DNA of 64,000 nucleotides. Source: a virus. Under the pieces are notes generated by a model. It did not search any database, had not been told where the DNA came from, and saw only the letters and a program-made list of their open reading frames with translations. The DNA is taken from the IMG/VR virus record IMGVR_UViG_3300032401_001693, positions 37,812 through 101,811 of that record, one strand, 5' to 3'. Position numbers and translations under genes: made by a program. Position 1 is the first letter of the stretch; every line of letters begins with the position of its first letter. Shown here piece after piece: positions 982 to 17,400 of this stretch.

Positions 982-1404
982 ATGAAAAACGAATTTTTTG
1001 TTAGCAAGTGTTGTAGAGCTGAGGCGCAGATTGTATTTTCAGACTTTCCTGATTTTATAGGAGATGATCCGAAAAAACAGAAAGTTGGGACTTCTTGGTT
1101 TAGGTGTACTAAATGCGATAAGCCTTGTGATATTCTACCTTTAGAAGAGGTTTTTAAGAAAGAGGAACCAGAGAAAGATCTATGGAAGTGGTCGCTTACT
1201 ATAACGCACGTTGATAACGGCTATCTGCTAGAAGGGCTTTCGTCAAATATGGGTGTTCCTATGAGTATGGTTATAGAAGATGACGAAGAGGACGAGCTTA
1301 AAAGCCATGAGTCGTTACTTTGGCAGGTAATGGAGTATTTTAATTTTGGTGGTTCGAAGCATGATCCAGTTCGTTTGAGGATCATAAGGGAGAAAAAGAA
1401 ATGA
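982..1404 (+). CDS. hypothetical protein with N-terminal Cys cluster (possible Zn finger)
   Basis: GGAGG RBS; SKCC...RCTKCDKPC; overlaps the next gene (ATGA). Confidence 0.6.
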   Translation: MKNEFFVSKCCRAEAQIVFSDFPDFIGDDPKKQKVGTSWFRCTKCDKPCDILPLEEVFKKEEPEKDLWKWSLTITHVDNGYLLEGLSSNMGVPMSMVIEDDEEDELKSHESLLWQVMEYFNFGGSKHDPVRLRIIREKKK

Positions 1405-1967
1405 ACTACGTAATTCTAAAAAAGTCTGTGGAAGGAAAGGTAATAGAGTTTCTTGCTGACAATCCAAATCCACCTGATAAGAAGATTCATGACTTGTCGG
1501 ATAGGCTGAAGATTAAAACAGACAAGTTTGAGGCGAAGATCTATGGGGTGCTTAGTGATGTTATTGAGCATGGAAATGGAGTAAAAGCTGACCCAAAAGA
1601 GTTAGCTATGGGTATCAAAATAGAAATGGAGCATACTAAGTATCCAGAACTTGCTAAATACATTTCTTTGGCCCATTTGAAAGAGATACCGGACTACTAT
1701 ACACGCCTTAAGAAGATGGAAGAGGAAGCAAAAAGTATTAATAAAGCAGTAAAAGATTCTAAAACTATTACGATAAAGTGTTCTAAGCAAGCTTCGGAAG
1801 ATCTTATTAGATTATTAGAACATTTGAAAGTATGGGGAAATATAGGACATTCTGGTAGTATACTGGCTGATCCGCCCTATGGTATTAAGGTTCCTAAAGA
1901 TGGTAAAATGTTTGGTTTCGATGGTGACGGTTCGTCAAAGATTTGGAGTATAAAAGAATCCGAATGA
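1401..1967 (+). CDS. leader-tagged (MNYVILKK^S) protein with a DUF5661-like domain; candidate internal head protein
   Basis: Shared leader; ELAMGIKIEMEHT...AHLKEIPDYYTRLKKME resembles DUF5661 (from memory); internal INK^A separates a second small domain. Confidence 0.6.
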   Translation: MNYVILKKSVEGKVIEFLADNPNPPDKKIHDLSDRLKIKTDKFEAKIYGVLSDVIEHGNGVKADPKELAMGIKIEMEHTKYPELAKYISLAHLKEIPDYYTRLKKMEEEAKSINKAVKDSKTITIKCSKQASEDLIRLLEHLKVWGNIGHSGSILADPPYGIKVPKDGKMFGFDGDGSSKIWSIKESE

Positions 1968-3991
1968 ACTACGTAGTCTTAGAAAAAGCTAAACCATATT
2001 TTAGAACTCGTAAGGGAAAGAGGGAGTTTGTGAGAGGTTATGTTTCACGAGTTGCTGTTCTGCCAACTCCAGAGCAACAGGAGCAGGGCAAGACGGGGCT
2101 AATGGAGTATTTAGAAGCTGTAACTAAGATGTTTCCTAAAGAAGCTAAACGGGAAGGCCGTGAGTACTCCAGTGTTGAGGAGTTTGTTCTTAAGCATGGT
2201 AAGTTTTATACACCTAAGGAGCTTCCCAAAAATGTTCTAGAGGGTAAGGTAAAAGACTGTTATATGAATGCTTGGCATTTGGCTACGGAAAGAAAAGATC
2301 TGACCTATGTGGAGGGGTATGCAGCCAGTGTGATACCTGTTATGCACGCTTGGTGTGTAGACAAGCAGGGGAATGTTATTGATCCAACATGGGGAACTGG
2401 TAAAGCATACTACGGTGTTCCTTTTACGACTGACTATATTATGAAGACTGCTATGAGAAGGAAGTATTTTGGGATTTTAGACAACTATCAGGAGGGCTAT
2501 CCTCTTTTAAAGGAGAGACCAAAAGAGGGTGTGATAGAAAAGTCCTACCATGTTGTTATGGAAAAGGCTACTCAAACTGGGCATAAAGCCTATGCTAGGA
2601 GTGTTAAGGGTAAGCTTCAACAGATTAAGCCAAAGGGATTTGTAAGGAAGCCTATTCCTAAGCGTAGGGAGAATGTTGTAGAGACTGTGGTTAGAAGTCA
2701 AGCTAGGAGAAAGGCTGTTCAGAGAGAAGAACCTATGCCAGAGTTTGATCAAACTACTGATATGCTTTCTGAGGCAACCGAAAAGTTGAAAGAGCAGTTT
2801 GATATAGATAAAAAACATTTTGAAGGGACTATTTCTTATCAAGAGATTAAATCTCAGATGGATAAGAATCTGAAAGAGATAAGGACTGAGAATTCTAAAA
2901 TTAGAGAAGTTTCTGGTTTTATGGATACCGATAATGCTAGGTCAATAGCTGCTAATATGAGAAATGAGTTAACAGTATATACTAAGTATCTAGCAGGTGA
3001 TTCTGTTGATCTTATGCATAAGTTTGTTAGTCTAACTGAGACTACTATTGAGAACGAGGATCTTAAAGGGATTGATGCTAAATATCTGAGCGACATGTGT
3101 GTAGATAGTATAAAGAAGCTGGTACACCAGGAGATAGAATCTAATAGGCAACAGTTTACTGACCACGGTGTTAGACATATAGTTAAGAATATACTTAACC
3201 AGAAAGATATGTTAGATTTACTTCAATCTTCTGGAATAACTGTTTCTCCTAAAGATAGGCTTTTGGCTATTTTTGTTATGATAAATCATGATGTTGGTTA
3301 TACAACTCCAGTGATTAGAGGTGGTGGCATAGAAGGAATAAAGGCTACTAAGCAGCATGGTGTCTATGGTAAGAAAATAGCAGAAGAGCAAAAGGATTTA
3401 TGGAATGTTGATAAGATATTTAGTGAGGAAGAGTATAATAGGGGGTTGGATATAATCGAAACCCATGATTCTGTGGATATGGATACTAAAGATCCTGTGG
3501 CTTTGACTACTAGGATTGCTGATAACTTGTCTCTATTCCAAAAAGAGAAACTTCCCTCAATGTTTGAGTATGTAGAAGGAGCAGAAAGGCTTCTAGTAGC
3601 GATGGGAGTGGCCGCTAAAAAAGACGAGAAAGAGGGATTTGAGAAATACAGAGATCAGTTGTACAAAAAAATAGATAAGGCTAAGTTCAGTCCAGCTTTA
3701 AAACGGGATTTAAAAGCTGGGTGTAAAGAAATTAGTTTCCTTACTCCTAAGTTTACGGTAGGTGTTTTAGCAGGTGAGATAAGTAAGATAGGTAAGTCTG
3801 ATAAGAGTCTTATCCAAGTGACTATAAAGCATAATAAGTTTGATGAAACATTACAGAAGCTCTTTGATGTGGGACAGCAGCAGGTAACGAAGCTACTAAA
3901 AGATTATGGTGAAACTGATTTCTCAAAGACTGAGTACCATTTAGGGAAGTATGGAGATAAGTCAATTTTGGAGTTAAAGGTAGAGAAATGA
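1964..3991 (+). CDS. tagged two-domain cargo protein: papain/transglutaminase-like (Cys-His-Asp) domain plus HD phosphohydrolase domain
   Basis: Start reassigned to ATG 1964 (ATGA overlap), MNYVVLEK^AKPYFRTRKGKREFVRGY. Domain 1: DCYMNA...YVEGYA...HAWCVD...IDPTW. Second tag VMEK^A...KAYARSVKGK. Domain 2: TDHGVRH...NHDVGY...HG...ETHDS...RIADNL. Confidence 0.7.
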   Translation: MNYVVLEKAKPYFRTRKGKREFVRGYVSRVAVLPTPEQQEQGKTGLMEYLEAVTKMFPKEAKREGREYSSVEEFVLKHGKFYTPKELPKNVLEGKVKDCYMNAWHLATERKDLTYVEGYAASVIPVMHAWCVDKQGNVIDPTWGTGKAYYGVPFTTDYIMKTAMRRKYFGILDNYQEGYPLLKERPKEGVIEKSYHVVMEKATQTGHKAYARSVKGKLQQIKPKGFVRKPIPKRRENVVETVVRSQARRKAVQREEPMPEFDQTTDMLSEATEKLKEQFDIDKKHFEGTISYQEIKSQMDKNLKEIRTENSKIREVSGFMDTDNARSIAANMRNELTVYTKYLAGDSVDLMHKFVSLTETTIENEDLKGIDAKYLSDMCVDSIKKLVHQEIESNRQQFTDHGVRHIVKNILNQKDMLDLLQSSGITVSPKDRLLAIFVMINHDVGYTTPVIRGGGIEGIKATKQHGVYGKKIAEEQKDLWNVDKIFSEEEYNRGLDIIETHDSVDMDTKDPVALTTRIADNLSLFQKEKLPSMFEYVEGAERLLVAMGVAAKKDEKEGFEKYRDQLYKKIDKAKFSPALKRDLKAGCKEISFLTPKFTVGVLAGEISKIGKSDKSLIQVTIKHNKFDETLQKLFDVGQQQVTKLLKDYGETDFSKTEYHLGKYGDKSILELKVEK

Positions 3992-4170
3992 GTAGTGAGA
4001 TTCTAAATTTTCTTATATTAGTAGTGAGTGTGCTTTTGAATGTAATTCTTATTGCTCTAACTATTCTAGCATTTCAGGCTTGGGAACATACTTTACTAGG
4101 TTTTGTATTTTTGACTGCGGTTTTTATGGTAACTTTTGGGATTTATAAGATGCTGGAAAGAGCTGGATGA
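3988..4170 (+). CDS. small membrane protein (two hydrophobic segments)
   Basis: 60 aa, two long hydrophobic stretches, ATGA-coupled at both ends. Confidence 0.6.
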   Translation: MSSEILNFLILVVSVLLNVILIALTILAFQAWEHTLLGFVFLTAVFMVTFGIYKMLERAG

Positions 4171-4700
4171 ACTACGTAATATTAGAAAAATCTCAGGTTA
4201 AAGGATTTACTAGGACTAGAAAAGGTAAGATGGAGAGAGTAAATCCTTTTTCAAGGAAGGGTGAGAAAAAAGTTAAATCTGTAGTTTTTCTTCATGGCAC
4301 GACTACTGCTGTTTTGGAAAGTATACTGAAACATGGGTTAACAGCAAAGGCAGCAAGAATGTCTGTATTTATAGATACGAAACAGGGATTTAAGAGAGGG
4401 GTATTTCTTACGTCCGATAGAAAAACTGCTGAGGCGTTTGCTTCTACGGCTTGGAGAGAGAAAGGAACCACATCGGTAGTTTTAGAGATTAAGATTCCAG
4501 ACGGCGAGAAATTGTATGGTGATCCTCCTCATAGTTCTAGGTTTCATGTAGGGAATATTCCGGCCTCTTGGATAAAAGCCTATTCTATACAAAGTTCAGG
4601 CAGAAAATGGTCACGCACTCTTGTTAAGTCAAAACAGGAGCAAATTTTCTTTGTTCCTGTAGTTATTGTTAATACAAAGGAGAAAGAAAATGATAAGTGA
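4167..4700 (+). CDS. tagged ADP-ribosyltransferase-fold protein (Tpt1/KptA- or PARP-like NAD-binding core)
   Basis: MNYVILEK^SQVKGFTRTRKGKMERVNPF tag, then FLHGTT..LESILKHGL...GVFLTSD...AEAFA...VVLEI...IPASWI. Confidence 0.65.
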   Translation: MNYVILEKSQVKGFTRTRKGKMERVNPFSRKGEKKVKSVVFLHGTTTAVLESILKHGLTAKAARMSVFIDTKQGFKRGVFLTSDRKTAEAFASTAWREKGTTSVVLEIKIPDGEKLYGDPPHSSRFHVGNIPASWIKAYSIQSSGRKWSRTLVKSKQEQIFFVPVVIVNTKEKENDK

Positions 4701-4890
4701 ACCAATTTTGACTGGAGACTGGAGCAACTGCGCAGTTATTCAACCTAAGAGATCTAGGATGAGGTGGTGTCCCACCTGCCAGGAACTGCATGATAAAGGA
4801 TCTTTTCTTAGATTTCATGGTAGCACAATGGGTTGTATGACAAAGGGTAGGAGTAAAGCTATGGCAAAGATAAAAGGTAGTAGCAAATAA
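4690..4890 (+). CDS. small hypothetical protein (CxxC...H...C)
   Basis: ATG 4690 after AGGAG; WCPTCQELH motif. Confidence 0.45.
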   Translation: MISEPILTGDWSNCAVIQPKRSRMRWCPTCQELHDKGSFLRFHGSTMGCMTKGRSKAMAKIKGSSK

Positions 4891-4904
4891 AAGGAGGTAG
4901 ATAG

Positions 4905-5312
4905 GTGGCAGAAAAAGTTTGGAGAGATGTAAGTATCGGGAAGGTTACAAGACCCATGTTGTGCCCAGATCTGGTAAGGCAGCGATGTGCGGTCGAATTT
5001 GTTACCGATCTAGGTATGAATGACTTTCCTTTTATGGAAGGCTATTTAGTTTCATTTCTAAAGGAGCTGAGTGTGGGTTTAGGAATGAAAATCTTCATGG
5101 GTCCAGTTGTAGGGAATGATCTGAATGAAGACACAAGGGAAAGTGGTCCTTCCGCATTTGTTGGTTGGACTACTAGTGGGGCTCAAGTTCATTGCTGGCC
5201 ATTCAGAGGATTTGTCTCAGTGGACGTATACTCGTGCAAAAGATATAATGTAGAGTTGGTTTTGAATCTGATCAAGGAGTACTTTAAACCTGTAGAATTG
5301 GTTATTTTTTAA
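4905..5312 (+). CDS. S-adenosylmethionine decarboxylase (class 1B SpeD-fold)-like protein
   Basis: AGGAGG RBS; LGMKIF..P...G.SAFVGWTTSGAQVHCWP..GFVSVDVYSCK..N....L..IKEYFKP matches the fold pattern. The usual E-S-H site reads T-S-G. Confidence 0.65.
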   Translation: MAEKVWRDVSIGKVTRPMLCPDLVRQRCAVEFVTDLGMNDFPFMEGYLVSFLKELSVGLGMKIFMGPVVGNDLNEDTRESGPSAFVGWTTSGAQVHCWPFRGFVSVDVYSCKRYNVELVLNLIKEYFKPVELVIF

Positions 5313-5325
5313 AGGAGGTGAGAGT

Positions 5326-5553
5326 ATGAAGAAACTGGAAAAGAAGAATGAGGAGGTTGGTATTCTAAAGATTTTGAAGGAAACTCCGGAAAAATGGGTC
5401 AAAATAGACGTTGAGATGAGTGATTCTTTAGTAGCTGCATTGATAGGTTATGCTAGGGAGAGGATGACTGATGAGGACATAAAAGAATATCTCATAAACT
5501 GGTCATTTATAGATATTCTGAAAAAGCAGATTGCAAGGGAGAAGAGAAAATGA
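5326..5553 (+). CDS. hypothetical protein
   Basis: AGGAGGTG RBS, 75 aa. Confidence 0.6.
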   Translation: MKKLEKKNEEVGILKILKETPEKWVKIDVEMSDSLVAALIGYARERMTDEDIKEYLINWSFIDILKKQIAREKRK

Positions 5554-5828
5554 AAAAGACGATAGTGATGCTATTTCTTATGTTGGGGATTACTTTTATT
5601 TATAACCCTCAGACGAATGTCGGGTTTGTTTACATCAACGATGCAGATTTTAATGGGATCATTATGGTAGATACGTCTACCAATGTTTTGCGTTATTACA
5701 AGGCTGTAATTTTTCACGAAGAGCGGATGAACTTTGACAAGTGGCTACAGGATAAGGTTGATAAGGGATTTCCATTCAAGTCGTCTATTATTCCGTTTGG
5801 GAGGCAGTATGAACAAAAAAGGTACTAA
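5550..5828 (+). CDS. hypothetical protein with N-terminal signal or membrane segment
   Basis: MKKTIVMLFLMLGITFIY N-terminus; ATGA overlap. Confidence 0.55.
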   Translation: MKKTIVMLFLMLGITFIYNPQTNVGFVYINDADFNGIIMVDTSTNVLRYYKAVIFHEERMNFDKWLQDKVDKGFPFKSSIIPFGRQYEQKRY

Positions 5829-6240
5829 GCCAAAGAAAGAAGTTGTTGAGATGTCTAATGGAAAGAAAGTTCTTGGAGTCCAAGCCAGCCTGAAAAATTT
5901 ACTAATCGCTACAGCATTGTTGTTTGGTTTCTTAGGTGGATTTTTCCAGGTTTATAGTTGGATAGATAATACATATCTTAGAGCCAAACATTTTCAGGAG
6001 GTTGATGCCCTTAGGAAGAAGTTTATAGAAAATGTTTCTGATAGACTGGATTTTAAGAGTGAAAGTGATCTTCTAAATGCCTGGTATATTAGGTATTCTA
6101 CGTTGGATAATCTTTTTAAGATGACACCAGATAGAAGCAAAATACCAGCAGAAACTATGGCAGAGTATAACGAGTTGCCAGGAAGGATAAAATTGCAGGA
6201 GTTGAAGGTAAAAGCACTGCAGGAGAAACTCTGTAAGTGA
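5809..6240 (+). CDS. single-pass membrane protein
   Basis: Start reassigned to ATG 5809 (GGGAGG RBS); hydrophobic LLIATALLFGFLGGFFQVYSWI. Confidence 0.55.
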   Translation: MNKKGTKPKKEVVEMSNGKKVLGVQASLKNLLIATALLFGFLGGFFQVYSWIDNTYLRAKHFQEVDALRKKFIENVSDRLDFKSESDLLNAWYIRYSTLDNLFKMTPDRSKIPAETMAEYNELPGRIKLQELKVKALQEKLCK

Positions 6241-6249
6241 GGGTAAAAA

Positions 6250-6414
6250 ATGGAAGAAAAATGCGCAGTATCTAATAAATGTACTCCACTTTGTTCTGGA
6301 TATAAAGAACGAGGGCAGTGTCCTGCTTGGTATCAGGCGGAGAAAAAGAAGAAGTGGGATAGGAAGAGGAAGGATGAATTTCGTTATACTAGAAAAAGCT
6401 CAAGTTCGAGTTAA
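6250..6414 (+). CDS. small 4-Cys hypothetical protein (54 aa, not in ORF track)
   Basis: MEEKCAVSNKCTPLCSGYKERGQCPAWY... fills the gap between genes; GAGGG upstream. Confidence 0.4.
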   Translation: MEEKCAVSNKCTPLCSGYKERGQCPAWYQAEKKKKWDRKRKDEFRYTRKSSSSS

Positions 6415-6556
6415 ACCCCATACTGCAACTATTAGGGGTAAAATAGTTCAAGTGAGGCAGTATACTAGGACTGATTCTAGGGAGAGGTCTTTGGATGAGA
6501 GGACTACTGGATTACTGGAGGTTGGGGCCTATCCAAAGCTGCCGGAAGAAAGGTAA
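6374..6556 (+). CDS. tag-bearing N-terminal segment, probably the 5' part of the GNAT gene (frame break near 6545)
   Basis: MNFVILEK^AQVRVKPHTATIRGKIVQVRQYTR; stops at AGG TAA while the +1 frame continues into the GNAT. Confidence 0.55.
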   Translation: MNFVILEKAQVRVKPHTATIRGKIVQVRQYTRTDSRERSLDERTTGLLEVGAYPKLPEER

Positions 6557-7250
6557 ACTGGATGATATTGAAAAGTTTAATGTTAAGGTTGCAAATGAAA
6601 AAATGACTAAAGAGAAAATACTTAATGCTTTTGTTTTAGATATACCTGATGCAGATAATGATGTGGGTATTAAAGCGGCATTTTGGGACGAAAACGATCT
6701 AGATGTTCAGGTTCAGTATCGTGTTAATAGAAAACATGCAGGAAGGAGCCATCTATACATCTACTATGATCCAAAAATAGATGGGTATGTCTGTTCTTTC
6801 TCTCTTATGGAGCTGGAGGCAGGATTTCAATCTCAGGGTTATGGACACAAGTTTTTTAAGAGATTGGAAACTAATTTGAAATCTTGGGGTGTTAAAGAGA
6901 TAAGGCTTTTTGCCGATCTGGATGTTGGTGGATATGCCTGGGCTAGGTTTGGGTTTGACTTTTTGAACGCTCAAGCAAGAAAGATGACAGTTAATGGGTT
7001 TATTAGAGTTCTAAATCTTGAGTATAACATTCAGGAGGATGCTGACAAGTTTAACCATCCTTGGGAAGTTGCAGTCTACAAAGGTCCCAATGGAGAGCCG
7101 ATAGGAAAGAAGTTTCTTTTGGGACAAACAAGGTTTATGACGGGCCATGATTGGTTGGCTAGTAAGACTTTAGATGAAAATAGTCTTGGTTGGAAAGTAG
7201 GAGAGGACTATGAAAGATCAAAAGCCAAAGTTGGGACCGCTACAGCATAA
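6495..7250 (+). CDS. GNAT-family acetyltransferase
   Basis: Acetyl-CoA motif LEAGFQSQGYGHKFF, then GVKEIRLFADLDVGGYAWARFGF. Confidence 0.7.
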   Translation: MRGLLDYWRLGPIQSCRKKGKLDDIEKFNVKVANEKMTKEKILNAFVLDIPDADNDVGIKAAFWDENDLDVQVQYRVNRKHAGRSHLYIYYDPKIDGYVCSFSLMELEAGFQSQGYGHKFFKRLETNLKSWGVKEIRLFADLDVGGYAWARFGFDFLNAQARKMTVNGFIRVLNLEYNIQEDADKFNHPWEVAVYKGPNGEPIGKKFLLGQTRFMTGHDWLASKTLDENSLGWKVGEDYERSKAKVGTATA

Positions 7251-7479
7251 AAGCACAGACGATCGAAAGTTCCACGATCCAATAGACTCTAAAGCTGATG
7301 AGCTCTGGAGGAATAGAATCGCAAAATTGTCTGAGCCCAAATTGGTAATAATAGAAAAAGCTGGAAGAGTAAAAATGGGGCAAGAGGAAAAGAAAAGGCG
7401 GGGTAGGGCTAAGGCTATTGAGAAAAGGGCTGAGAAAAGGGAAGATATAGAGGCTTATGGAGAGGCGTTAGAAGATTAG
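7210..7479 (+). CDS. basic hypothetical protein with internal LVIIEK^A site
   Basis: GAGGA RBS; carries the shared cleavage-like motif. Confidence 0.5.
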   Translation: MKDQKPKLGPLQHKSTDDRKFHDPIDSKADELWRNRIAKLSEPKLVIIEKAGRVKMGQEEKKRRGRAKAIEKRAEKREDIEAYGEALED

Positions 7480-7574
7480 AAATGAGTGTTTAACCTTTAA
7501 TTAATTGAGGGTAAACTCTAAAGTATATGGTGGCCAGATATTTGCGTAAGAGCAGGTATTCACGGAGTTAGTGG

Positions 7575-7913
7575 ATGTGGATCAAGATAAGAAAACTAAA
7601 TAAAGCTATTTATCCTGGAAATTTAGGTTTGGTAGAAATGCATCAGTTTGTCAAGGAAGCTCCTGTGGGTCAGGCTGAGAAGTTTGTTCAACTACTGAAA
7701 CAGGATAAAACTAGAGAAGCTGTAAAAATGTTGGAAGAGTTCACAAAAAAGAAGTTCCATCCGTCTATTCATGGCCTAAATCTTTTGCCTTCTCATAAGG
7801 ATCCCAAAAAGAAGAGATGGCAGCATGTACTTTTACAAAAAGCTAAACCATATACTAGAACTCGTAAAGGCAAGTTTGAGAGAGTAAAGGGCTATAACAA
7901 AGGCTTGGAATAA
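7575..7913 (+). CDS. small tagged protein (LNK^A near N-terminus; full tag at C-terminus)
   Basis: KLNK^AIYPGNLGLVEM...HVLLQK^AKPYTRTRKGKFERVKGY. Confidence 0.6.
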   Translation: MWIKIRKLNKAIYPGNLGLVEMHQFVKEAPVGQAEKFVQLLKQDKTREAVKMLEEFTKKKFHPSIHGLNLLPSHKDPKKKRWQHVLLQKAKPYTRTRKGKFERVKGYNKGLE

Positions 7914-7960
7914 ACTAGCTAGAAAATTTCAATTTACATATATAGGAAATGAGAAAGTAG

Positions 7961-10900
7961 ATGCCTAGAATAAGAATTCCTAAAACAGCTATAACTGAAC
8001 CTATAACCACAATTTATGCTGATCAAGTCACTCAAGCCGTCAGACAAAGACAGATGAGTAAGATCGATAGGGAATCTCTGCGCTTGATCACGCGTATCGA
8101 CGATGACATGAGAGATAGGTTAGGAGCTTTACTTCGGGAAGGTGTAGAGCAAGGTAGATCAGTTTCAGCCACTGCAAGTACCCTCTTGAAAACAGGTCTG
8201 GACAAAGGCACGTTTAGATCAGCCAGGCGCAGAGCTTGGATGATAGCAAAGACTGAGCTACACCGCGCACGAATGCTTGCTGCCCGAGATGTTTATGAAG
8301 CTAATGGTATTGATTTAGTTAAATGGATTGGAATAGGAGATGAGCGTATCTGTCCGGTGTGCGGTAGGATGCATAATAGAGTTTTTCGTTTAAGAGATAT
8401 AAGAGATGAGCATCTACCACCAGTTCACCCTAGGTGTAGATGCAGGGTCGTCCCAAGTGACATGCAAATGGATATAACAGTAAGACATGATAGAGAGGGA
8501 AAAGTGGTAGAGTCGAAAGTGGCACCAAACCCGCATGATTATCTTTATGTAGTGAAGCTTAAGAAGGCTTTAGAAGACCTAATGAAAGCAGTTCAAGTTC
8601 GTGGGGAAGATTTAGTACAAGGAACTCCCTTATTCAAAGCTGATGATAATGAAATAGATTTAGAGAAGAGCGAATTTTCATCTACTCAGGTTAATCTACC
8701 TAAGGTGTTAGCTTCTAAGGTTTTGAATACTGTTAAACTTATAGATCCAGATGACCTACATCCTACAGAGAAACAAGATGACGCTCCACATATTACTGTT
8801 AGATATGGCATACTTCCAGAGGTTCCACCTAAGCATGTAAAAGAAATACTTGATCATCCAGGAAAGGTAAAAGCCAGTATTACTGGTGTAGATGTTTTCC
8901 AACCCGAAGACAAAGACTATGATGTTTTGGTTTTTAGGATTGATAGTCCAGATCTTAATTTGCTTAATGAAAAGCTAAAGCAACTGCCACATGAAGATAC
9001 TTATCCATTTTATCAACCTCATTCTACTATTGCTTATCTGAAGAGAGGACTTGGAAAAAAATATGTAAACTTAGTAACTGGTCTTGAGGGGGAAGAAATT
9101 GAGTTTGACACAATCAAGTTTTCTGATAAGGATTATAAAAAGGTTAGTATTGACTTAGAAAAGGCTTTTGGAGGGCTAGAGACGGAATTAGAAAAAGCCA
9201 GGCCCTACATCCGAACTAAAAAGGGAAAGTTAGAGCATGTAAAGGGCTATCCACATAGGCCACGACTATTTGATGTAAGTCCTGAGAAGAGAATAGAAAG
9301 GGCTTTGGAGCCTACCCGAGAAGATGTAAAAATGGTTAATAGGATCTCACATGAGATACACGCAATAGGTGGTAGAGCTCTAATAGTGGGTGGGTTTGTT
9401 AGGGATGCTTTACTAGGCAGACCAAGTAAAGATATAGATGTTGAGGTCTATGGTGTTAAACCAACCGAACTTAGGAGTGTTTTAGATAGGATAGGTAAGG
9501 TAGATGCAGTAGGTGCTTCGTTTGGCGTTCTAAAAGTATCTGCTCCAGAGATGGATGAGCCACTGGATGTTTCTATTCCTAGAAGAGATTCTAAAGTGGG
9601 TACTGGCCACAAGGGTTTTATTGTGGAAGCAGATCCTGGAATGACTCCTAAAGAAGCTGCCCTTAGAAGGGACCTTACTATTAACTCCCTTGCCTATGAT
9701 CCTATTACTAAAGAAATAATAGATGAGTATGGTGGACTTCAGGACATAAAAGATCGCAAATTAAGTGCTACCGATGATACTACTTTTGTGGAAGACCCAC
9801 TTAGAGTACTTAGAGTGATGAGATTCTCTGCCCAGTTAGGGTTTAGTCCTACGGTAAAGTTGGCTTGGCTTTGTAGGAGTGTGGATTTGACTAGCTTGCC
9901 TAAAGAGAGAATCTATGGAGAACTAGAAAAGACTCTAATGTCTAAGAATCCTAGTATTGGGTTAATGCTTACCAAGATATTAGGTATAAATAAGATATTG
10001 CCAGAATTAGAGGATCTTAGAACCACAGAACAAAGTCAAGAATTTCATCCGGAAGGGGATGCGTTTCAGCATACTCTACAAGTGATCGACTCTGCATCCA
10101 AACTAAAAAAGGGTTTCTCAGATAGATCAGATCGTATTGTCTTAATGTTTAGCGCACTTTGTCACGATATGGGTAAACCTCAGACCACAGAGACTACTGC
10201 TGAGGGTAAGATTATTAGTCATGGGCATGATGCTGTAGGGGCTGAGGTAGCTAGAAAGTTTATGGAAAGGTTGACTAATGAGAATGATTTGATTGATCGA
10301 GTAGAGATTCTAGTGCGTTCACATATGGCGCCTACCAATCTATACCAAGCTAAAGCAGGAGATTCAGCTATTCGTAGATTGGCTAAAAAAGTTGATATAC
10401 CTATGCTTGTCGCACTATCAGCTGCAGATAAGAGGGGACGTGATATAAAGGTTGATCTAAAGGCTGAGAGTTGGTTAATGAAGAAATATAGGACCCTACT
10501 GTTAAATAGACCTGAGACTTTAGAGGCAAAAGTAAGGGGTAGGGATTTGATACCTTTAGGAATCCAACCAGGTCCTGATATGGGCAGATTACTGAATAAG
10601 ATTTATTCAGCTCAGTTGGATGGTAAGTTTGAAACTATGGAACAGGGATTGGACTATGCTCGTCAACAGGGATGGCTGGTGAAGGGGTTATTTGGATATG
10701 ACATAAATAAAGCAGTTCCGGTGAAAGGGTTTACCAGAACTAGAAAAGGTAAGAGGGAGATGGTTAAACCACATACTAGGACTGCTAAACAAAAGATGAC
10801 TGCTCTTGAGGCTTTTGTAGGTGGGGCAGTTCCAAAGAAGGGTTGGCAGAAAGAGGAGGCTGATAAATTCCTAGAAGAAGTTAATCCTATTTTTAAGAAA

Positions 10901-12685
10901 CATCATTTTAAAGTAGAGATGATAGGTTCAGTGGCAAGAGGTAAAGTTTACGAAAAGGGGCACTATGATCTAGATTTGAGGATTACTCATACTAGAGGAG
11001 ATGAGACTGCCGAAAGAGAGGATTTAGATTATGAGTACACTGATCCTAAACAGCAGGGGGATCTAGGAAGGTTGTTGTTGAACTTGCAGAAGAAGGGGTT
11101 ACATTTTGAAATAAATGAACCGTCTGGAGAGGAGAAAGATCCTACAGCTACTCTTAGTCTAAAAGATGGTAGGGTGGTGGATCTGTATTATGAGGAACAC
11201 GAGGGAAAGGAAGGAATGGAGGAAAAGACTCCTCTCTTGCATCTAACCTATGATAAGTTGGCAGCAGGTGGTAGGGTTAAGCATGTTCCTAAACCAGATC
11301 CAGAGCAGGAAGAGGCTATTAGGAGATGGTTGTCTAAGTCATTACTAGAATATATTGGTAAGCCAAATACTGAGGAAACACGGAAAGAGATCCAGGATCT
11401 GGTTTTAAAAGCCATCCAAGTTAAGGGTCATCTTAGAACCAGACGTGGGAAGCAAGGATGGGTTAAACCACACCATAGGCAGGCAGGAGAAATAAGCCGA
11501 AAGATTCCAGAAGTTAGTGTGTCAGGTTTTGATGATAGTGATGTTGTACCAGAAATACCCGGTTTTGACGAAGGATCATTTGAGCCTAGATTGAACTGGT
11601 TTGCAGAGAAAAATTATCTTGGATGGAAAAAATTTAAAGTAGATGAAGCTATAAGGGGGGATTTTCCTGAGAAGTACCGAAATGAGAAGTTTGTATACCT
11701 TTTGAAAGATCTTAGAACTGGTGAGGATTTTACGGGTGGAACTCAGGCAGAATTGGAAACTTTCCTAGACGAACTTGAGAAGGCTGATAAGAAATCAAAA
11801 GAATATGTTTCTAAATGGGACTTAAAGTCTATAAATATTTTGCCTAGAAATGAGGATGCTGAAGTTTTATCTAAAAGGGTTTCTTGGGATTTTGAAAATG
11901 CTATATACGCCCTTATGGAAATTGATAGAAAAATAGGTATAGCAGGTCGTGGTATATTAAATATTAGGTTTGGTAAGACGGACGATGGTGATGAATCCAG
12001 AGGCATATACGTAGTAAAAGAAAAATTAATAGAAATAGATGATAGATATCCAAGGACAGTACCTCATGAGTTTGGACATTTTTTATTTGATATGAATATT
12101 GGTATAGAGGAAAACAGGTCCTATTTTAAAGAGTTAAGTGATGCCTTAGGAGATTATTATCTTAGTAACAAAAAGGAAGTTGCCACATGGATTATAGAAC
12201 ATCCATACGATGGTTTAGATTACTTTTTAATGCCTACTGAACAGTTTGCTCGTGTGGTTGATACGTATGTGAGGGGTGAAGTTGATGAAGTTTTCTATCC
12301 TGATAATCATCCCGAATATTTTAAGATAGTTAATGATTGGGGTGATAAATATCTAAAGACTGGAGTTATAAAAAGTAAATCTATTTTTCTGTTAGACCTT
12401 AAAAAATCCAGGAAAGAGTTAGTAAATTTAAGAAAATCTAGAGTCGAGGGTAAGAAAATTCCATATAGGAACGATAATGGAAAAGTTGTCTGGGCTAAAG
12501 TAATGGATGGTGGGGTGGTAATAAAAGGAACGAGGGATAAAGTATTTCTCGGAACTAAAATATTGATAAAATCAGATATTGCCAACGTGACGGGGGTAGG
12601 ACGAGATGGTGTGATTGCTAGAACTGACAATGGCAAGAAATACCAGGTTCTACACAAAGATTTGAATTTTTGGGTTAGGAGGTGA
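7961..12685 (+). CDS. MuF (minor head protein) polyprotein: MuF + 2H phosphoesterase (Acb1/gp57B-like) + class II CCA-adding enzyme with HD domain + nucleotidyltransferase + HExxH metallopeptidase-like domain
   Basis: MuF: IAKTELHRA...W...DERICPVC...PPVHPRCRC. 2H: PHITVRYG / YQPHSTIAY. CCA: VGGFVRD..DIDVEV, RRDLTINSL, EDPLRVLR, HPEGD..HT, CHDMGK. NTase: IGSVARG..YDLDL. Zincin: VPHEFGHFL. Confidence 0.85.
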   Translation: MPRIRIPKTAITEPITTIYADQVTQAVRQRQMSKIDRESLRLITRIDDDMRDRLGALLREGVEQGRSVSATASTLLKTGLDKGTFRSARRRAWMIAKTELHRARMLAARDVYEANGIDLVKWIGIGDERICPVCGRMHNRVFRLRDIRDEHLPPVHPRCRCRVVPSDMQMDITVRHDREGKVVESKVAPNPHDYLYVVKLKKALEDLMKAVQVRGEDLVQGTPLFKADDNEIDLEKSEFSSTQVNLPKVLASKVLNTVKLIDPDDLHPTEKQDDAPHITVRYGILPEVPPKHVKEILDHPGKVKASITGVDVFQPEDKDYDVLVFRIDSPDLNLLNEKLKQLPHEDTYPFYQPHSTIAYLKRGLGKKYVNLVTGLEGEEIEFDTIKFSDKDYKKVSIDLEKAFGGLETELEKARPYIRTKKGKLEHVKGYPHRPRLFDVSPEKRIERALEPTREDVKMVNRISHEIHAIGGRALIVGGFVRDALLGRPSKDIDVEVYGVKPTELRSVLDRIGKVDAVGASFGVLKVSAPEMDEPLDVSIPRRDSKVGTGHKGFIVEADPGMTPKEAALRRDLTINSLAYDPITKEIIDEYGGLQDIKDRKLSATDDTTFVEDPLRVLRVMRFSAQLGFSPTVKLAWLCRSVDLTSLPKERIYGELEKTLMSKNPSIGLMLTKILGINKILPELEDLRTTEQSQEFHPEGDAFQHTLQVIDSASKLKKGFSDRSDRIVLMFSALCHDMGKPQTTETTAEGKIISHGHDAVGAEVARKFMERLTNENDLIDRVEILVRSHMAPTNLYQAKAGDSAIRRLAKKVDIPMLVALSAADKRGRDIKVDLKAESWLMKKYRTLLLNRPETLEAKVRGRDLIPLGIQPGPDMGRLLNKIYSAQLDGKFETMEQGLDYARQQGWLVKGLFGYDINKAVPVKGFTRTRKGKREMVKPHTRTAKQKMTALEAFVGGAVPKKGWQKEEADKFLEEVNPIFKKHHFKVEMIGSVARGKVYEKGHYDLDLRITHTRGDETAEREDLDYEYTDPKQQGDLGRLLLNLQKKGLHFEINEPSGEEKDPTATLSLKDGRVVDLYYEEHEGKEGMEEKTPLLHLTYDKLAAGGRVKHVPKPDPEQEEAIRRWLSKSLLEYIGKPNTEETRKEIQDLVLKAIQVKGHLRTRRGKQGWVKPHHRQAGEISRKIPEVSVSGFDDSDVVPEIPGFDEGSFEPRLNWFAEKNYLGWKKFKVDEAIRGDFPEKYRNEKFVYLLKDLRTGEDFTGGTQAELETFLDELEKADKKSKEYVSKWDLKSINILPRNEDAEVLSKRVSWDFENAIYALMEIDRKIGIAGRGILNIRFGKTDDGDESRGIYVVKEKLIEIDDRYPRTVPHEFGHFLFDMNIGIEENRSYFKELSDALGDYYLSNKKEVATWIIEHPYDGLDYFLMPTEQFARVVDTYVRGEVDEVFYPDNHPEYFKIVNDWGDKYLKTGVIKSKSIFLLDLKKSRKELVNLRKSRVEGKKIPYRNDNGKVVWAKVMDGGVVIKGTRDKVFLGTKILIKSDIANVTGVGRDGVIARTDNGKKYQVLHKDLNFWVRR

Positions 12686-12690
12686 GATAG

Positions 12691-12936
12691 ATTTTCTATT
12701 GTAACTCCTGCGGAAATGAAGTAATTAAATCGTATCCAAGTGGTTCTGTCAAGTTAAGGACCAACATTGTTATCTTCGAAAATGGACGAGCTTTTTGTAA
12801 ATGTCCCGAATGCCATTCTGAAGTTAATCTGCCACTAGTATTGGAACTTCCTACTGGTAAAACTTTACCACTGGGCAAGAAATTGCAATATTTTATTTTG
12901 GAAAAAAGTGAGAAGGGGGTGAAAGGTGAAAAATGA
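12691..12936 (+). CDS. Zn-ribbon protein with ATT start codon (81 aa, not in ORF track)
   Basis: AGGAGGTG (12677-12684) lies 6 nt before ATT, which directly follows an in-frame TAG. The protein reads IFYCNSCG...KLRTNIVIF...CKCPEC...YFILEK^S and fills the 240-nt gap exactly. Confidence 0.65.
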   Translation: MFYCNSCGNEVIKSYPSGSVKLRTNIVIFENGRAFCKCPECHSEVNLPLVLELPTGKTLPLGKKLQYFILEKSEKGVKGEK

Positions 12937-13360
12937 AAAAGTGAGTAGACCAGTTTGTATTGAGTGTGGAAGTAAGTGGGTAATAAGTTCAGGTATAAGT
13001 TGGCACTGCGGTGATTGTGGGCGTGTGTTTAAGAAGCACCTTCGTGGGAGACCAAGGTTAAAAGTTGTTAGACCTAACTGTCCTAAGTGTGGTGCTGAGG
13101 GTGAGAAGTATACTATATCATGTGGACAGCAATGGAAGTGTAGTAAGTGTAGTAGGAGTTGGCTAAAATTTCTAATAGGTACTAATAGAACAGTAGAGGG
13201 TGATAGGCCGAATTGTCCAACTTGTGGTAAATCGGATCCAATGTCTAAAGCTGACAGGTGGAAGTGTACGGGTTGTAGCTTAACTTGGCAGAAGAACTAT
13301 AGAACTTCTAAGGTTTATTCACCTTTGGATTTACATAGTGCTAAAGTTGTAGATGTATAA
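12926..13360 (+). CDS. triple zinc-ribbon protein
   Basis: Three RPxCxxCG...WxCxxC repeats. Confidence 0.7.
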   Translation: MKNEKVSRPVCIECGSKWVISSGISWHCGDCGRVFKKHLRGRPRLKVVRPNCPKCGAEGEKYTISCGQQWKCSKCSRSWLKFLIGTNRTVEGDRPNCPTCGKSDPMSKADRWKCTGCSLTWQKNYRTSKVYSPLDLHSAKVVDV

Positions 13361-13378
13361 TTGAAAAAAGGAGGCTAT

Positions 13379-14224
13379 ATGAGGTTAAAATTGAAAGAGT
13401 TAAGAAAGTTTTTTGTACGAAGGATTGCAGCTATATCTGATTTGCACCTAATGTCTAGATCTTCACTTTTTCCGCCTATTTTTAAAACCACAGAAGGTAA
13501 CGAGTTTCGTGGAAATACTGGTCAGAGTCAGATATGGAGTTACTGGAAGCAGTTTTGTCATATATGCGATGAATGGGAGGTAGATACTGTGTTTTTAGCA
13601 TCAGATCTACTACATGGGCAGAATCCAATAGAAAGGGGTACGGGTTTAATAAGTACCAACCTAAATGAACAGATACAGTTAGGAGAGGACACTTTGACTC
13701 TTTTACTAAAAGGAAGGGAGAGTCATTGGGTAGGAGGTTCCAGATATCATGACAGTACTAAAGGGATGTACGTTGAACACGAGCTTTGTAACCGTATGAC
13801 AGAAGCTGGTATAACTAAAGGCACCTGGCATGGACCAATAGCCAATATGAGAGTGAAGCCTTTTGATAAGATAGTAAATATGACGCATGGTGGTGGTAGG
13901 GCGGCATATTACAGAGAAACTATAGCTGCTAGGGAGATGGTTTATGGAAAGGCAGCAGAGGTTGATGGTAAGTTGCCTAGGATCGACTGCTATATTCATG
14001 GCCATTTTCACTGGTATAACCACATTCATCAGGGTCGGGTTCATCATATTCAGCTACCTGGTTGGACGGCTTATGAACCTGTTCCCATTTTTACTCCTAA
14101 CTATACTAGGATGCAACCAGATATAGGTGGAGTTCTTATACTTTTCGACGCAGAAGGTAGGATCACTGTTTGGCATTTTCTTTACCCGCTTCCTCATATT
14201 TCTGATATAGTAGTAGAAGTTTAG
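13379..14224 (+). CDS. calcineurin-like metallophosphoesterase
   Basis: ISDLH, SDLLHG, GSRYHD, THG, HGHFH; ATG 13379 follows AGGAGG. Confidence 0.75.
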   Translation: MRLKLKELRKFFVRRIAAISDLHLMSRSSLFPPIFKTTEGNEFRGNTGQSQIWSYWKQFCHICDEWEVDTVFLASDLLHGQNPIERGTGLISTNLNEQIQLGEDTLTLLLKGRESHWVGGSRYHDSTKGMYVEHELCNRMTEAGITKGTWHGPIANMRVKPFDKIVNMTHGGGRAAYYRETIAAREMVYGKAAEVDGKLPRIDCYIHGHFHWYNHIHQGRVHHIQLPGWTAYEPVPIFTPNYTRMQPDIGGVLILFDAEGRITVWHFLYPLPHISDIVVEV

Positions 14225-14236
14225 GGTTTGGTAGGT

Positions 14237-14254
14237 TTTTATATAAATCATAAT
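14237..14254 (+). promoter_or_regulatory. putative late promoter motif TTTTATATAAATCATAAT
   Basis: Intergenic, recurs four times before structural or glycan modules; core TATAAATC is one base from the T4 late promoter TATAAATA. Confidence 0.6.
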
Positions 14255-14265
14255 GATAGGGAGTT

Positions 14266-14565
14266 ATGAGTTTTTTAGCGGTGGTTTTGGATAAAGTACG
14301 TCAAGCTGATCTGGAACAGTTTAGGGAAAAGGTTCAGTCTATGGAGAAAACTAGAGGTCTGGACCTTGAAGAGTCCGGTCTTGAGAATCTAGATATGGTT
14401 GTTAAACGAAGAGGAGATCAGTTTGAGACATTTATTGTTGATGGGCAGGAAGAATACGTTAAGAAGATGCTAGGAGAACAAAAATCAAAAACTGAAGAAA
14501 CAGTTAAGTTAGACGATAACAATTCAGACTCGATGGTTAATTTCTTAGAAAAGATAAGGGGCTAA
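14266..14565 (+). CDS. hypothetical protein preceding the prohead protease
   Basis: GGGAG RBS, 99 aa. Confidence 0.6.
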   Translation: MSFLAVVLDKVRQADLEQFREKVQSMEKTRGLDLEESGLENLDMVVKRRGDQFETFIVDGQEEYVKKMLGEQKSKTEETVKLDDNNSDSMVNFLEKIRG

Positions 14566-14568
14566 ACT

Positions 14569-15831
14569 ATGGGATGCAATTCGGTTGAAAAAGATTTTCA
14601 GTTTTGGATGCCGTTGGAGATCGAAAAGGCCAAAAAAGAGGGAGAGTGGCGAGTTGCTGGAATAGCTTCCGATGAAAATGCCCAGGATATCCAGGGAGAA
14701 ACAGTGTTTGTTAAGGGTCTGGATGTATCCTACTTAATGGAAAGAGGCGCGCTAAACTGGGATCATGGGAAGGATCCTGGAGATATTCTGGGTGAGATTG
14801 AGTTAGCTTCTAAGATAGATGGTGAGAAAAAGCTATATGTGGAGGGGGTTCTTTATCCGCATATCAAAAAAGCTCAGGATGTTTGGAATCTGATGCAATC
14901 TCTAAAGGATACAGAAAGCAAAAGAAAGTTAGGTTTGTCTTTAGAGGGCAAAATTAAGGAAAGAGACTCAGAAACAGGAAAACAGATACGCAAGGCCTGG
15001 ATAAAGAATGTTGCAATCACATACAATCCTATCAATAAAGGTACATATTTGGATATGGTTAAATCATTGGGGAAGTTTAGTTTTGATCTTTGTGATAAGA
15101 AGTGCGAAGGATGTACACTATGCGAAGAGGTGGAAAAGGCTTCTGAGGGAAGTGTGACTATAGATCCAGTCGTAGACCACAAAGAAACAGAAGTGAAGAA
15201 GGCAGAGGTTAAGGTAGCTGAGGAAACTAAACCCATAGAAGTGCCACTTCCCTCAGAGTCAGTTCAGAAAACACTAGAAGCAGGGCAGGATATTCCAGCT
15301 ACTACTGGTGGAGTAAGTGGTTCCGCACTAAGGGCAGAGTCTTTAGAACAGGAGACTAAGGTGACTACATATCAAAAGAAAAAGAAGAAACAGAAGACGG
15401 ATGGAGAATTTACAAAATCTGAACTGGCTGAGTGGTTACAGGAGGAAAGAAACTACTCACCTAAAACTGCTAATTTGATGGCCAATCTCTTGTTTCTAGT
15501 TAAAGCTATTAATATAGCTGGATACATTAGAACTAGGAAGGGGAAGTTAGAAAGAGTTAAGCCCTTTACTAGGGAACTTACACATGAAATATACCGCATT
15601 AAAACAATGTCGGATAGCAATCTTATGACAAGGGCGCGGAAAATAAAACATGCCGACAAAATGCTTCACTTCTATCACGCGGCAGTTGCTGCTGGTAAGC
15701 CTGAGTTGGTTGGTTATATTAGATCTCAGGGCCATAGATTAGGATTAACAAATAGCGATTTTACTGGTGCAGCCGAACCTGTAGGGGCAGGGCTGAAAGA
15801 GGCATCTAGGGCCTTCCGAGCAGCGGCATAG
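14569..15831 (+). CDS. prohead (capsid maturation) protease with C-terminal extensions
   Basis: VAGIAS..DIQGE...GALNWDH...LYVEGVL...RKLGLSLEG...VAITYNPIN resembles Herelleviridae prohead proteases; lies upstream of scaffold and capsid genes. Confidence 0.85.
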   Translation: MGCNSVEKDFQFWMPLEIEKAKKEGEWRVAGIASDENAQDIQGETVFVKGLDVSYLMERGALNWDHGKDPGDILGEIELASKIDGEKKLYVEGVLYPHIKKAQDVWNLMQSLKDTESKRKLGLSLEGKIKERDSETGKQIRKAWIKNVAITYNPINKGTYLDMVKSLGKFSFDLCDKKCEGCTLCEEVEKASEGSVTIDPVVDHKETEVKKAEVKVAEETKPIEVPLPSESVQKTLEAGQDIPATTGGVSGSALRAESLEQETKVTTYQKKKKKQKTDGEFTKSELAEWLQEERNYSPKTANLMANLLFLVKAINIAGYIRTRKGKLERVKPFTRELTHEIYRIKTMSDSNLMTRARKIKHADKMLHFYHAAVAAGKPELVGYIRSQGHRLGLTNSDFTGAAEPVGAGLKEASRAFRAAA

Positions 15832-15836
15832 TTTAG

Positions 15837-16067
15837 TGTGTTAGAGGCAAATTTAGGCCTACCGAGTTAACAATCACTAAGGACCAAGCAACTAATCTCT
15901 TACATGATAAATTAGGCTATTCCAGACGAATGGCTGCTAAGTTAGCCACTGTTGCACTCTTGTCTAAAGGCAATAGGACTTTCGAAGTTGCTATTGCCAC
16001 AGCTTTAAGATTAGCTCTTGAGAAATCTCGAAAAGATGGATCTAAGAAAAGAAAGAAAAATAATTAG
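15837..16067 (+). CDS. open frame lacking a canonical start, encoding a copy of the TKxxxxxxLxxxxGYS helical repeat
   Basis: ITKDQATNLLHDKLGYSRRMAAKLATVALLSKG...ALEK^S is similar to segments of the protease and of 16142..16576. Confidence 0.4.
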   Translation, partial: CVRGKFRPTELTITKDQATNLLHDKLGYSRRMAAKLATVALLSKGNRTFEVAIATALRLALEKSRKDGSKKRKKNN

Positions 16068-16152
16068 AAGTTACCATAAAGTTAGTAATGGTAAAAGGAT
16101 TAAAGTTAACTCGTTTATTAGAAACGAAGTTGAAAAAGAATATGCTAAGTAA
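16036..16152 (+). CDS. 38-aa basic peptide consisting mainly of a variant of the cargo tag
   Basis: MDLRKERKIIRSYHKVSNGKRIKVNSFIRNEVEKEYAK. Confidence 0.45.
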   Translation: MDLRKERKIIRSYHKVSNGKRIKVNSFIRNEVEKEYAK

Positions 16153-16576
16153 CGTCACAACTTTAGATGAAGAGTTTGAGAAGGCTAAGAAATCAAAAGG
16201 ACAGGATAAAGTCCATACTGTTATGAGTGAGTTCAAACATGGTCATCTCCACTCTGGGAGAGGTAAGAAAGGTAAAAAAGGTAAAATAGTAACTGATAGA
16301 CAGCAAGCAATAGCTATTGCTCTTTCGGAAGCAGGACTTTCTAAAGGAGATAAAATGAGAACTTTTACTAAATCACAGGTAGTAGAATTTCTAAGGAATG
16401 AATGTGGATACGGTCAAGAATCTTCTGAAAAGATGGCTGATCTGGTGTTCAAAGCTAGGATTAAGGGAGCTAAAGATAAGAATAAACGTAAGAAAAAACT
16501 ATTTAAGATTGGTAAAACAGATGGGCAAACTAGATATGGTCCTGCTCCTGTAAAAAAGTGGTTTGGTCAGAAATAA
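16142..16576 (+). CDS. basic protein with DUF6496-like segment and GAKDKxKRKK motif; candidate internal head protein
   Basis: KVHTVMSEFKHGHLHSG...IVTDRQQAIAIALSEAG; several K^[A/S] sites; start reassigned to ATG 16142. Confidence 0.6.
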   Translation: MLSNVTTLDEEFEKAKKSKGQDKVHTVMSEFKHGHLHSGRGKKGKKGKIVTDRQQAIAIALSEAGLSKGDKMRTFTKSQVVEFLRNECGYGQESSEKMADLVFKARIKGAKDKNKRKKKLFKIGKTDGQTRYGPAPVKKWFGQK

Positions 16577-17344: not shown

Positions 17345-17400
17345 GTTTAGATGAAAGTTTTTTAACTTGATAGAAGAAAAGAAAGGAGGTGAAAACAATA

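Follow-up and report, generated by a model that had tools for sequence, protein, structure and literature searches.

A module of predicted cleavage site and hairpin shared by unrelated head-region proteins of an uncultured phage: a probable mark of proteins carried in the capsid

What could be the reason for finding the same short peptide on a series of otherwise unrelated proteins encoded between the portal and the major capsid protein genes of a phage? The question is raised by a stretch of 64,000 nucleotides (positions 37,812 to 101,811 of IMG/VR record IMGVR_UViG_3300032401_001693; hereafter the window), which takes up the right-hand end of a 101.8-kb phage contig and in which several genes start with an 8-residue leader and/or carry a basic, hairpin-like motif. 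The answer that we consider probable, based on the sequence comparisons presented here, is that leader and hairpin belong to a single module marking proteins that would be loaded into the procapsid, cut by the prohead protease and injected with the DNA. Coordinates refer to the window unless marked “genome”.

A first-pass annotation of the window had listed nine hairpin sites and four leaders, all of which were recovered by regular expression and profile. The in-frame hairpins begin at 1991, 2585, 4200, 6413, 7845, 9200, 10724, 11423 and 15520 (18-column profile) and the leaders, said to be near-identical also at the DNA level, at 1401, 1964, 4167 and 6374; the first three leader genes do have their initial 12 bases in common. 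Upstream of the window are two additional leader genes (starting at genome 35638 and 35931) and two additional hairpins (genome 35024 and 35662). The contig was scanned with a regular expression, then with an 18-column profile and then with a broader profile built on 212 distinct instances; the latter yielded 11 hairpins in the whole contig, every one of them on the + strand and between the portal and capsid genes (genome 35024-53331), while no other place in the six frames of the 101.8 kb exceeded 9 bits. The motif had been predicted to be confined to the head module, none having been noticed downstream of the capsid gene, and this six-frame scan bears the prediction out for a contig that is about 53% complete according to CheckV. 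As to the leader, the contig contains six matches to its pattern, and 50 shuffles gave none.

Outside this contig, a word-index search with the module alignment returned 78 longer proteins, and a profile run exhaustively against 1.84 billion cluster representatives detected 235 clusters with E ≤ 0.001, including 26 with E ≤ 1e-10. No trace of the module was found in 50,697 cultured-phage records nor, using a tighter module alignment, in one genome each of 185,579 species; the tighter alignment retrieved only two already-known IMG/VR records and 15 mostly short metagenome contigs. Seven module peptides gave zero Pfam matches even at E ≤ 10, a search of the ESM Atlas with the module gave generic hairpins only, and the module strings were not found in the literature searched.

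The 222 instances on which the following statistics are based come from the proteins of 181 of the 235 clusters and define a module of ~27 residues, in which a hydrophobic-x-Lys triplet is followed by Ala or Ser (rarely Gly), by a spacer of 0–4 residues and by an 18-residue basic hairpin having the consensus Lys-(Pro/Gly)-(Tyr/Phe/His)-x-Arg-Thr-Arg-(Lys/Arg)-Gly-Lys-x-Glu-x-Val-(Lys/Arg)-(Gly/Pro)-(Tyr/Phe/His) and a mean net charge of about +5. The turn Gly is invariant and the neighboring Arg, Glu and Val are kept in 207–218 of the 222 instances, a degree of conservation that, judged from the alignment, is stricter than unspecific DNA binding would need. Because Lys and a small residue lie 9–13 positions before the invariant Gly, with a hydrophobic residue two positions upstream, in 217 of these instances, leader and tag are to be regarded as one module; the two elements that had been distinguished at first are thus both real, but they are better read together. 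The module begins at residue 1 in 120 of the 181 proteins, most often after the 8-residue leader, and is otherwise mostly internal, the internal copies being devoid of the hydrophobic leader strand; a C-terminal placement is seen in only 6 of 225 instances. AlphaFold models of the protease tail (see below) show two short strands flanking the Lys-Gly turn (pLDDT, i.e., predicted local distance difference test score, 55–65), and those of an ADP-ribosyltransferase (ART)-like cargo protein show two short strands at the same turn, with the leader disordered and unpaired, albeit at low confidence; this second model, obtained from an alignment of 6 sequences and having a pLDDT of 56, was set aside for fold assignment.

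What the module is attached to varies greatly. Single-linkage clustering of the 181 proteins with the module masked gives 81 groups, of which 65 have a single member; only about 16 of the 148 members scanned have a Pfam match, and no Pfam family is common to these 148. The families recognized on the cargo are Peptidase_C39 (four proteins), ART-PolyVal, ADPrib_exo_Tox, Acb1/2H, Tad6, YunG, GNAT and CxxCxxCC, and many of the cargo domains look like host-takeover or anti-defence enzymes as far as their sequences tell. Furthermore, there are 16 pairs of proteins that share a cargo domain, which is preceded by an internal module in one partner, a polyprotein, and by an N-terminal module in the other, a stand-alone protein; the module thus serves as a joint for the fusion, splitting and exchange of cargo units. 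These 16 pairs and the number of unrelated cargo groups (at least 81) bear out the notion of a reusable, modular label contained in the first-pass annotation.

The nature of the predicted cutting site emerges from the comparison with the major capsid protein, which shares 41–45% identity with its counterparts in SPO1-like Bacillus phages and has matches in the capsid protein structures solved for SPO1 and phi812. Its N-arm contains Leu-Asn-Lys followed by Ala; the mature capsid protein of a related Staphylococcus phage in PDB 9row (439 residues) has as its first residue exactly the one aligned to this Ala31, and in the 463-residue precursor of PDB 5lii a Lys stands directly before the residue aligned to Ala31. 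In all 53 related sites, belonging to capsid N-arms and to their mimics, Lys is followed by Ala, Ser or Thr and a hydrophobic residue is located two positions upstream; the hydrophobic-x-Lys-Ala/Ser site of the module equals, therefore, the site of capsid maturation, and the Lys specificity anticipated earlier agrees with it.

The enzyme expected to act at this site is encoded shortly before the capsid gene, the order of the block being portal (genome 24753-27953, upstream of the window), about 24 kb of accessory genes, MuF protein, prohead protease, DUF6496 protein, scaffold and major capsid protein. Residues 21–165 of the protease are modeled with a pLDDT > 90 and have as best Foldseek matches the proteases of human cytomegalovirus (HCMV), Kaposi’s sarcoma-associated herpesvirus (KSHV) and pseudorabies virus (PrV) (E about 6e-4, probability 1.0); all of the 37 sequences compared have His66 and Ser124, as befits an assemblin-fold serine protease, and the protein groups with the SPO1-like head maturation proteases (phrog_1028). 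A viral-contig search with the protease as single-protein query gave no match. Its long tail contains a copy of the module, followed by a conserved C-terminal helical domain, and, at about 15262-15384, a copy of the capsid N-arm (counterpart at 17476-17600) complete with the Lys-small-residue site. Among the long-tailed protease orthologues (55–74% identity) the module is present in about 19 of 29 and the N-arm copy with its site in about 24 of 29, both being absent from the short SPO1-type proteases. In the orthologues P0194 and P0202 DUF6496 is part of the protease tail itself. The N-arm copy may be a means by which protease or scaffold co-assembles with the shell. SPO1-like Bacillus phages have a similar N-arm copy ~1.2 kb ahead of their capsid gene.

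The use of the module as a joint is best seen in the MuF protein, whose order of domains is MuF, a 2H/Acb1-like phosphoesterase, a CCA-adding nucleotidyltransferase with HD, a nucleotidyltransferase-like domain and a segment with His-Glu-x-x-His (Pfam E-values 7e-13 for Phage_Mu_F, 1e-19 for PolyA_pol, 2e-10 for HD and, with an excised segment, 6e-07 for 2_5_RNA_ligase2). MuF is fused here to at least two effector domains and the portal is 18 kb upstream, so that the protein can be counted among the MuF polyvalent proteins. All three of its modules fall between Pfam domains, the first one following the 2H domain and preceding the CCA-adding enzyme without touching the Pfam envelopes. The domain after the second joint shares 55% identity with the beginning of P0065, a stand-alone, N-terminally tagged protein; the label “Tad6-like” was considered for this domain and rejected, since the Tad6 match of P0065 concerns its C-terminal part, outside the shared region.

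Table 1. Positions of module copies, head genes and related features (window coordinates)
Feature	Position	Strand	Details
Leader alone, no hairpin; DUF5661 protein	1401..1424 in gene 1401-1967	+	Predicted P1 Lys codon 1422-1424
N-terminal module of 675-residue two-domain protein 1964-3991	1964..2044	+	Lys-Ala site, codon 1985-1987; hairpin 1991-2044
Internal module, second subtype	2549..2638	+	Lys codon 2564-2566; hairpin 2585-2638
N-terminal module of PARP-like, ADP-ribosyltransferase-like protein, gene 4167-4700	4167..4253	+	Lys codon 4188-4190; hairpin 4200-4253
Tagged GNAT-like gene, frameshifted	6374..7250	+	Module 6374-6466; site Lys codon 6395-6397
C-terminal-end module of 112-residue protein 7575-7913	7824..7898	+	Lys codon 7839-7841; hairpin 7845-7898
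MuF polyvalent protein	7961..12685	+	MuF domain followed by effector domains
Polyprotein joint 1	9182..9253	+	Lys codon 9194-9196; hairpin 9200-9253
Polyprotein joint 2	10697..10777	+	Lys codon 10709-10711; hairpin 10724-10777
Polyprotein joint 3	11396..11476	+	Lys codon 11408-11410; hairpin 11423-11476
Prohead serine protease	14569..15831	+	Assemblin-fold catalytic domain, residues ~21-165
Module in protease tail	15490..15570	+	Site Lys312 codon 15502-15504; hairpin 15520-15570
DUF6496 protein	16088..16576	+	Repeats the helical pair of the protease tail, a pair ending in a hydrophobic-x-Lys-Ala site
Scaffolding protein	16640..17344	+	Acidic run of about 15 residues
Major capsid protein, SPO1/phi812 type	17389..18819	+	Predicted cut after Lys30 (codon 17476-17478), before Ala31

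From the range of the cargo, the copies in the protease tail and the correspondence of the site with that of capsid maturation we infer, with good support, that the module is cut by the head protease and that the proteins bearing it are loaded into the capsid. The sequence of events would be the following: the tagged proteins, products of the late head module, would enter the procapsid either as stand-alone proteins or as beads on the MuF-anchored polyprotein; the prohead serine protease would cut after the module Lys in the course of maturation, and the cargo domains would stay inside the head, usually with the hairpin as their new N-terminus, to enter the host together with the DNA. That MuF-fused polyvalent proteins are packaged and injected has been proposed before, in passages of a study of such proteins (PMC5512222).

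Several observations weigh against this reading or limit it. The capsid protein’s own site has no hairpin, which means that cutting in itself does not require one. In the 112-residue protein 7575-7913 the hairpin is C-terminal to the site, and the predicted cut would detach it from the body of the protein; the hairpin, which had been thought to stay on the freed enzyme, would do so in the usual layout of the module, but retention on the cargo is not universal. Among 54 loci with related capsid genes, a weak copy of the hairpin is found in the two closest (76% identity) only and none in the other 52; in these closest relatives the hairpins are degenerate and the protease has none, so that the hairpin must be dispensable in some lineages. 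G001, a second phage (IMG/VR record of 114,307 bases, labeled Woesebacteria at NCBI), has 11 modules at 9.9–31.6 kb; all its tagged genes are upstream of a portal gene whose product is 57–63% identical to that of the present phage, and neither a capsid nor a protease gene was found in its contig, so that either its gene order differs or the contig ends early. Finally, the AlphaFold confidence for the hairpin is moderate to low, the family members are all from uncultured phages, and the confinement of the hairpin to the head module holds for the part of the genome in hand.

What the hairpin binds to is a question of its own. Its strict conservation suggests a specific, conserved partner, and our preference goes to a component of the head, be it the acidic scaffold, the protease or the interior of the capsid, with DNA binding possibly coming later, once the head is filled. 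The acidic run of the scaffold is, as an idea only, a candidate electrostatic partner of the basic hairpin, and the charges of the two would suggest an electrostatic loading step followed by binding to DNA. The more specific proposal that the hairpin is a portable loading peptide of a kind not recognized before, which docks on a conserved procapsid component, such as the acid tract of the scaffold or the protease, and after maturation switches to the packaged DNA, so that the module would suffice for any protein to be loaded, cut free and co-injected, is put forward tentatively, as somewhat less probable than its negation.

The fixed position of the hairpin beside the site would also allow a pure substrate-docking role. 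The module would then be an extended substrate cassette, whose hairpin docks the protease on the primed side and so makes it cut efficiently, with no part in loading or in DNA binding, the cargo entering the head otherwise, e.g., by virtue of MuF or of the leader. We regard this as rather unlikely. The hairpin is indeed always found 0–4 residues past the site, is conserved to a degree well beyond the needs of a general polyanion binder and is present in the protease’s own tail, where autoprocessing is expected; yet the maturation site of the capsid protein and the copy that mimics it in the protease are conserved as sites in spite of having no hairpin, the relatives with degenerate hairpins retain their Lys-Ala sites, and stand-alone proteins would profit nothing from the loss of 8 residues, unless leader or hairpin acts in some other way.

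A role of the module as an uncleaved nucleic-acid binder, in which leader strand and hairpin form a three-stranded sheet that targets the effectors to the DNA or RNA of the host cell and the location in the head module reflects late expression only, is distinctly unlikely in our opinion. Basic three-stranded sheets bind DNA in the arm-binding domains of integrases, the net charge of about +5 over 18 residues and the two strands predicted for the hairpin would suit such a function, and many of the cargo proteins act on nucleic acids or nucleotides (the CCA-adding enzyme, the 2H phosphoesterase, the nucleotidyltransferases). However, this explanation leaves the invariant Lys-small-residue pair unaccounted for and does not fit the location of the module at the joints of the MuF polyprotein and in the protease tail, nor the internal versions that lack a hydrophobic leader strand; in addition, the leader is disordered rather than paired in the (low-confidence) AlphaFold model and no DNA-binding family of Pfam was matched, even at E ≤ 10.

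Even if the module is cut, the protease could be another one, namely one of the cargo-borne peptidases, such as the metallopeptidase-like His-Glu-x-x-His segment of the MuF protein, the C39 enzymes or a papain-like peptidase (genome 31953-33905), instead of the prohead protease. This we hold to be very unlikely: C39 enzymes cut after Gly-Gly and not after Lys, the site equals the maturation site of the capsid, which is cut by the prohead protease family, and in most of the genomes or contigs that encode tagged proteins none of these proteins is such a peptidase. On the other hand, four C39 peptidases are tagged, the papain-like peptidase is encoded in the same block, and autoprocessing by the metallopeptidase domains of polyvalent proteins was proposed by Iyer et al., in the relevant passages of PMC5512222. 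That the shared leader is instead a DNA-level feature, i.e., a joint for cassette-exchange recombination or a context for translation initiation with a non-functional peptide, is suggested by the 12 initial bases common to three genes and by the several starts that overlap the preceding stop codon, but can already be taken as largely refuted and has next to no likelihood, given that the six leader copies vary at synonymous positions, which suggests that the peptide rather than the DNA is under selection, that the peptide is conserved over many divergent contigs and that site plus hairpin also occur deep inside long open reading frames.

The reading in terms of loaded, cut and injected proteins has its closest parallel in the internal proteins of the T-even phages, diverse defence proteins which, as stated in a passage of PMC3012670, have only the capsid targeting sequence in common. 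The T-even internal proteins (IPI-III, Alt and the products of the polymorphic ip loci), otherwise unrelated and evolving fast, are loaded in the scaffolding core, trimmed by removal of the leader by gp21 and injected. In the system described here, too, unrelated head-region proteins begin with one short and conserved leader (6 copies in the contig; module at residue 1 in 120 of 181 proteins; 81 cargo groups), which ends at what is, by motif only (the 53 sites and the comparison of 9row with 5lii), the site of the prohead protease. Unlike the T-even system, this phage has an SPO1/phi812-like capsid, a long-tailed assemblin-fold protease and a leader of 8 residues, a strictly conserved basic hairpin would normally be left on the cargo, and the module is found also at the MuF joints and in the protease tail. 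The T4 prohead protease cuts after Glu; the P1 residue is Lys here, and neither a gp21-type protease with Leu/Ile-x-Glu specificity nor homology of the leaders was found. The system would thus work like the T4 scheme without being a member of it.

As regards other phages, the capsid N-arm site and the catalytic domain of the protease are homologous to those of Herelleviridae (A511, phi812, SPO1), whose proteases are, however, short (235–262 residues) and have neither hairpin nor long tail. The C-terminal tail of the HK97 protease and the cargo-loading peptides of encapsulins are C-terminal tags that bind directly to the interior of the shell; in both cases, as would also be true here, a passenger is carried into an HK97-fold shell by means of a short peptide, and the protease of the present phage likewise has its tag in a C-terminal tail, but on most proteins of the present system the tag stands at the N-terminus or inside the chain and comes together with a predicted cutting site. 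The MuF polyvalent proteins of Iyer et al. 2017 (PMC5512222), to which MuF polymorphic toxins may be added, likewise combine MuF and several effectors near the portal; processing by embedded metallopeptidases is proposed, and no conserved inter-domain joint is described, in the passages of that paper dealing with them, whereas here the joints are the site-plus-hairpin module, which doubles as N-terminal tag of single-domain genes. In the giant phages phiKZ and SPN3US, where head and ejection proteins undergo propeptide processing, a single motif is the cutting site in many head proteins as well as in the protease, and the propeptides may serve for targeting, as reported in parts of PMC10052503; according to the same parts of that source these propeptides are mostly long (111–254 residues) and unshared, the protease is T4-like and no portable hairpin is described. 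In the literature searched we found no description of a retained hairpin, of the double use at joints and gene starts or of a copy in a protease tail.

Some of the remaining genes of the block deserve mention. The internal module at 2549 sits between the two halves of the 675-residue protein and has Gln in place of the conserved Glu. The ART-like cargo domain retrieved only itself in a word-index protein search. The GNAT-like gene is frameshifted at a short direct repeat near 6499-6522, its enzyme part (6495-7250) being in another frame with an ATG of its own; 6374-6556 and 6495-7250 are one gene, because an intact 289-residue homologue (P0026) exists, and the frameshift could be an assembly error or indicate a pseudogene or an untagged variant. 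The leader-bearing 493-residue protein at genome 35931-37412 matches the PI3/PI4-kinase catalytic domain with 31.7 bits, above the Pfam cut-off, and is, by this match, a possible packaged protein kinase. Two genes of the cargo block are untagged, namely a fragment of an M14/AstE-AspA-like carboxypeptidase (3-671) and an S-adenosylmethionine-decarboxylase-like protein (4905-5312). The portal protein has 1066 residues compared to 562–610 in relatives, which align only to its residues 2–307 and 819–1061; the ~510-residue insert has a weak Intein_splicing match (E 1e-4, below cut-off) and is therefore probably an intein. The scaffold ends (17300-17344), as does that of the 76% relative (locus L001, about 9870-9906), with an Ile-Leu-Lys-Ala/Ser-Tyr-Ile-Lys run resembling the leader site; the idea that the leader is a copy of this C-terminal end was dropped, since 16 other related scaffolds do not have the run. 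P0131 and P0156, two weak profile matches, are bacterial-looking secreted proteins with a signal peptide and 2–3 tandem copies of a similar hairpin (Val-Lys-Gly-Tyr ... Gly-Lys ... Val-Lys-Gly-Tyr), from which it follows that the hairpin may be an autonomous unit of wider distribution.

If the proposed function is correct, a single short signature would mark, across a clade of uncultured phages, the proteins that are carried in the capsid and injected first, a class of proteins otherwise nearly unrecognizable from sequence, most of the tagged families being devoid of a known function. The shared-address strategy of T4 would have arisen independently in another lineage of capsid and protease, with another cutting specificity and with the retained basic hairpin as a new element, and single-gene cargo and MuF polyproteins would represent one system, whose units are swapped at the tag. 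It would also suggest that relatives of known anti-defence enzymes (Acb1-like, Tad6-like and ADP-ribosyltransferases) can be delivered pre-made, without the need for expression after entry. Should, in particular, the hairpin be a loading peptide, the 235 or more tagged clusters would constitute a catalogue of pre-packaged effectors, anti-CBASS- and anti-Thoeris-like ones included, and the module would be a tool to load chosen proteins into phage heads.

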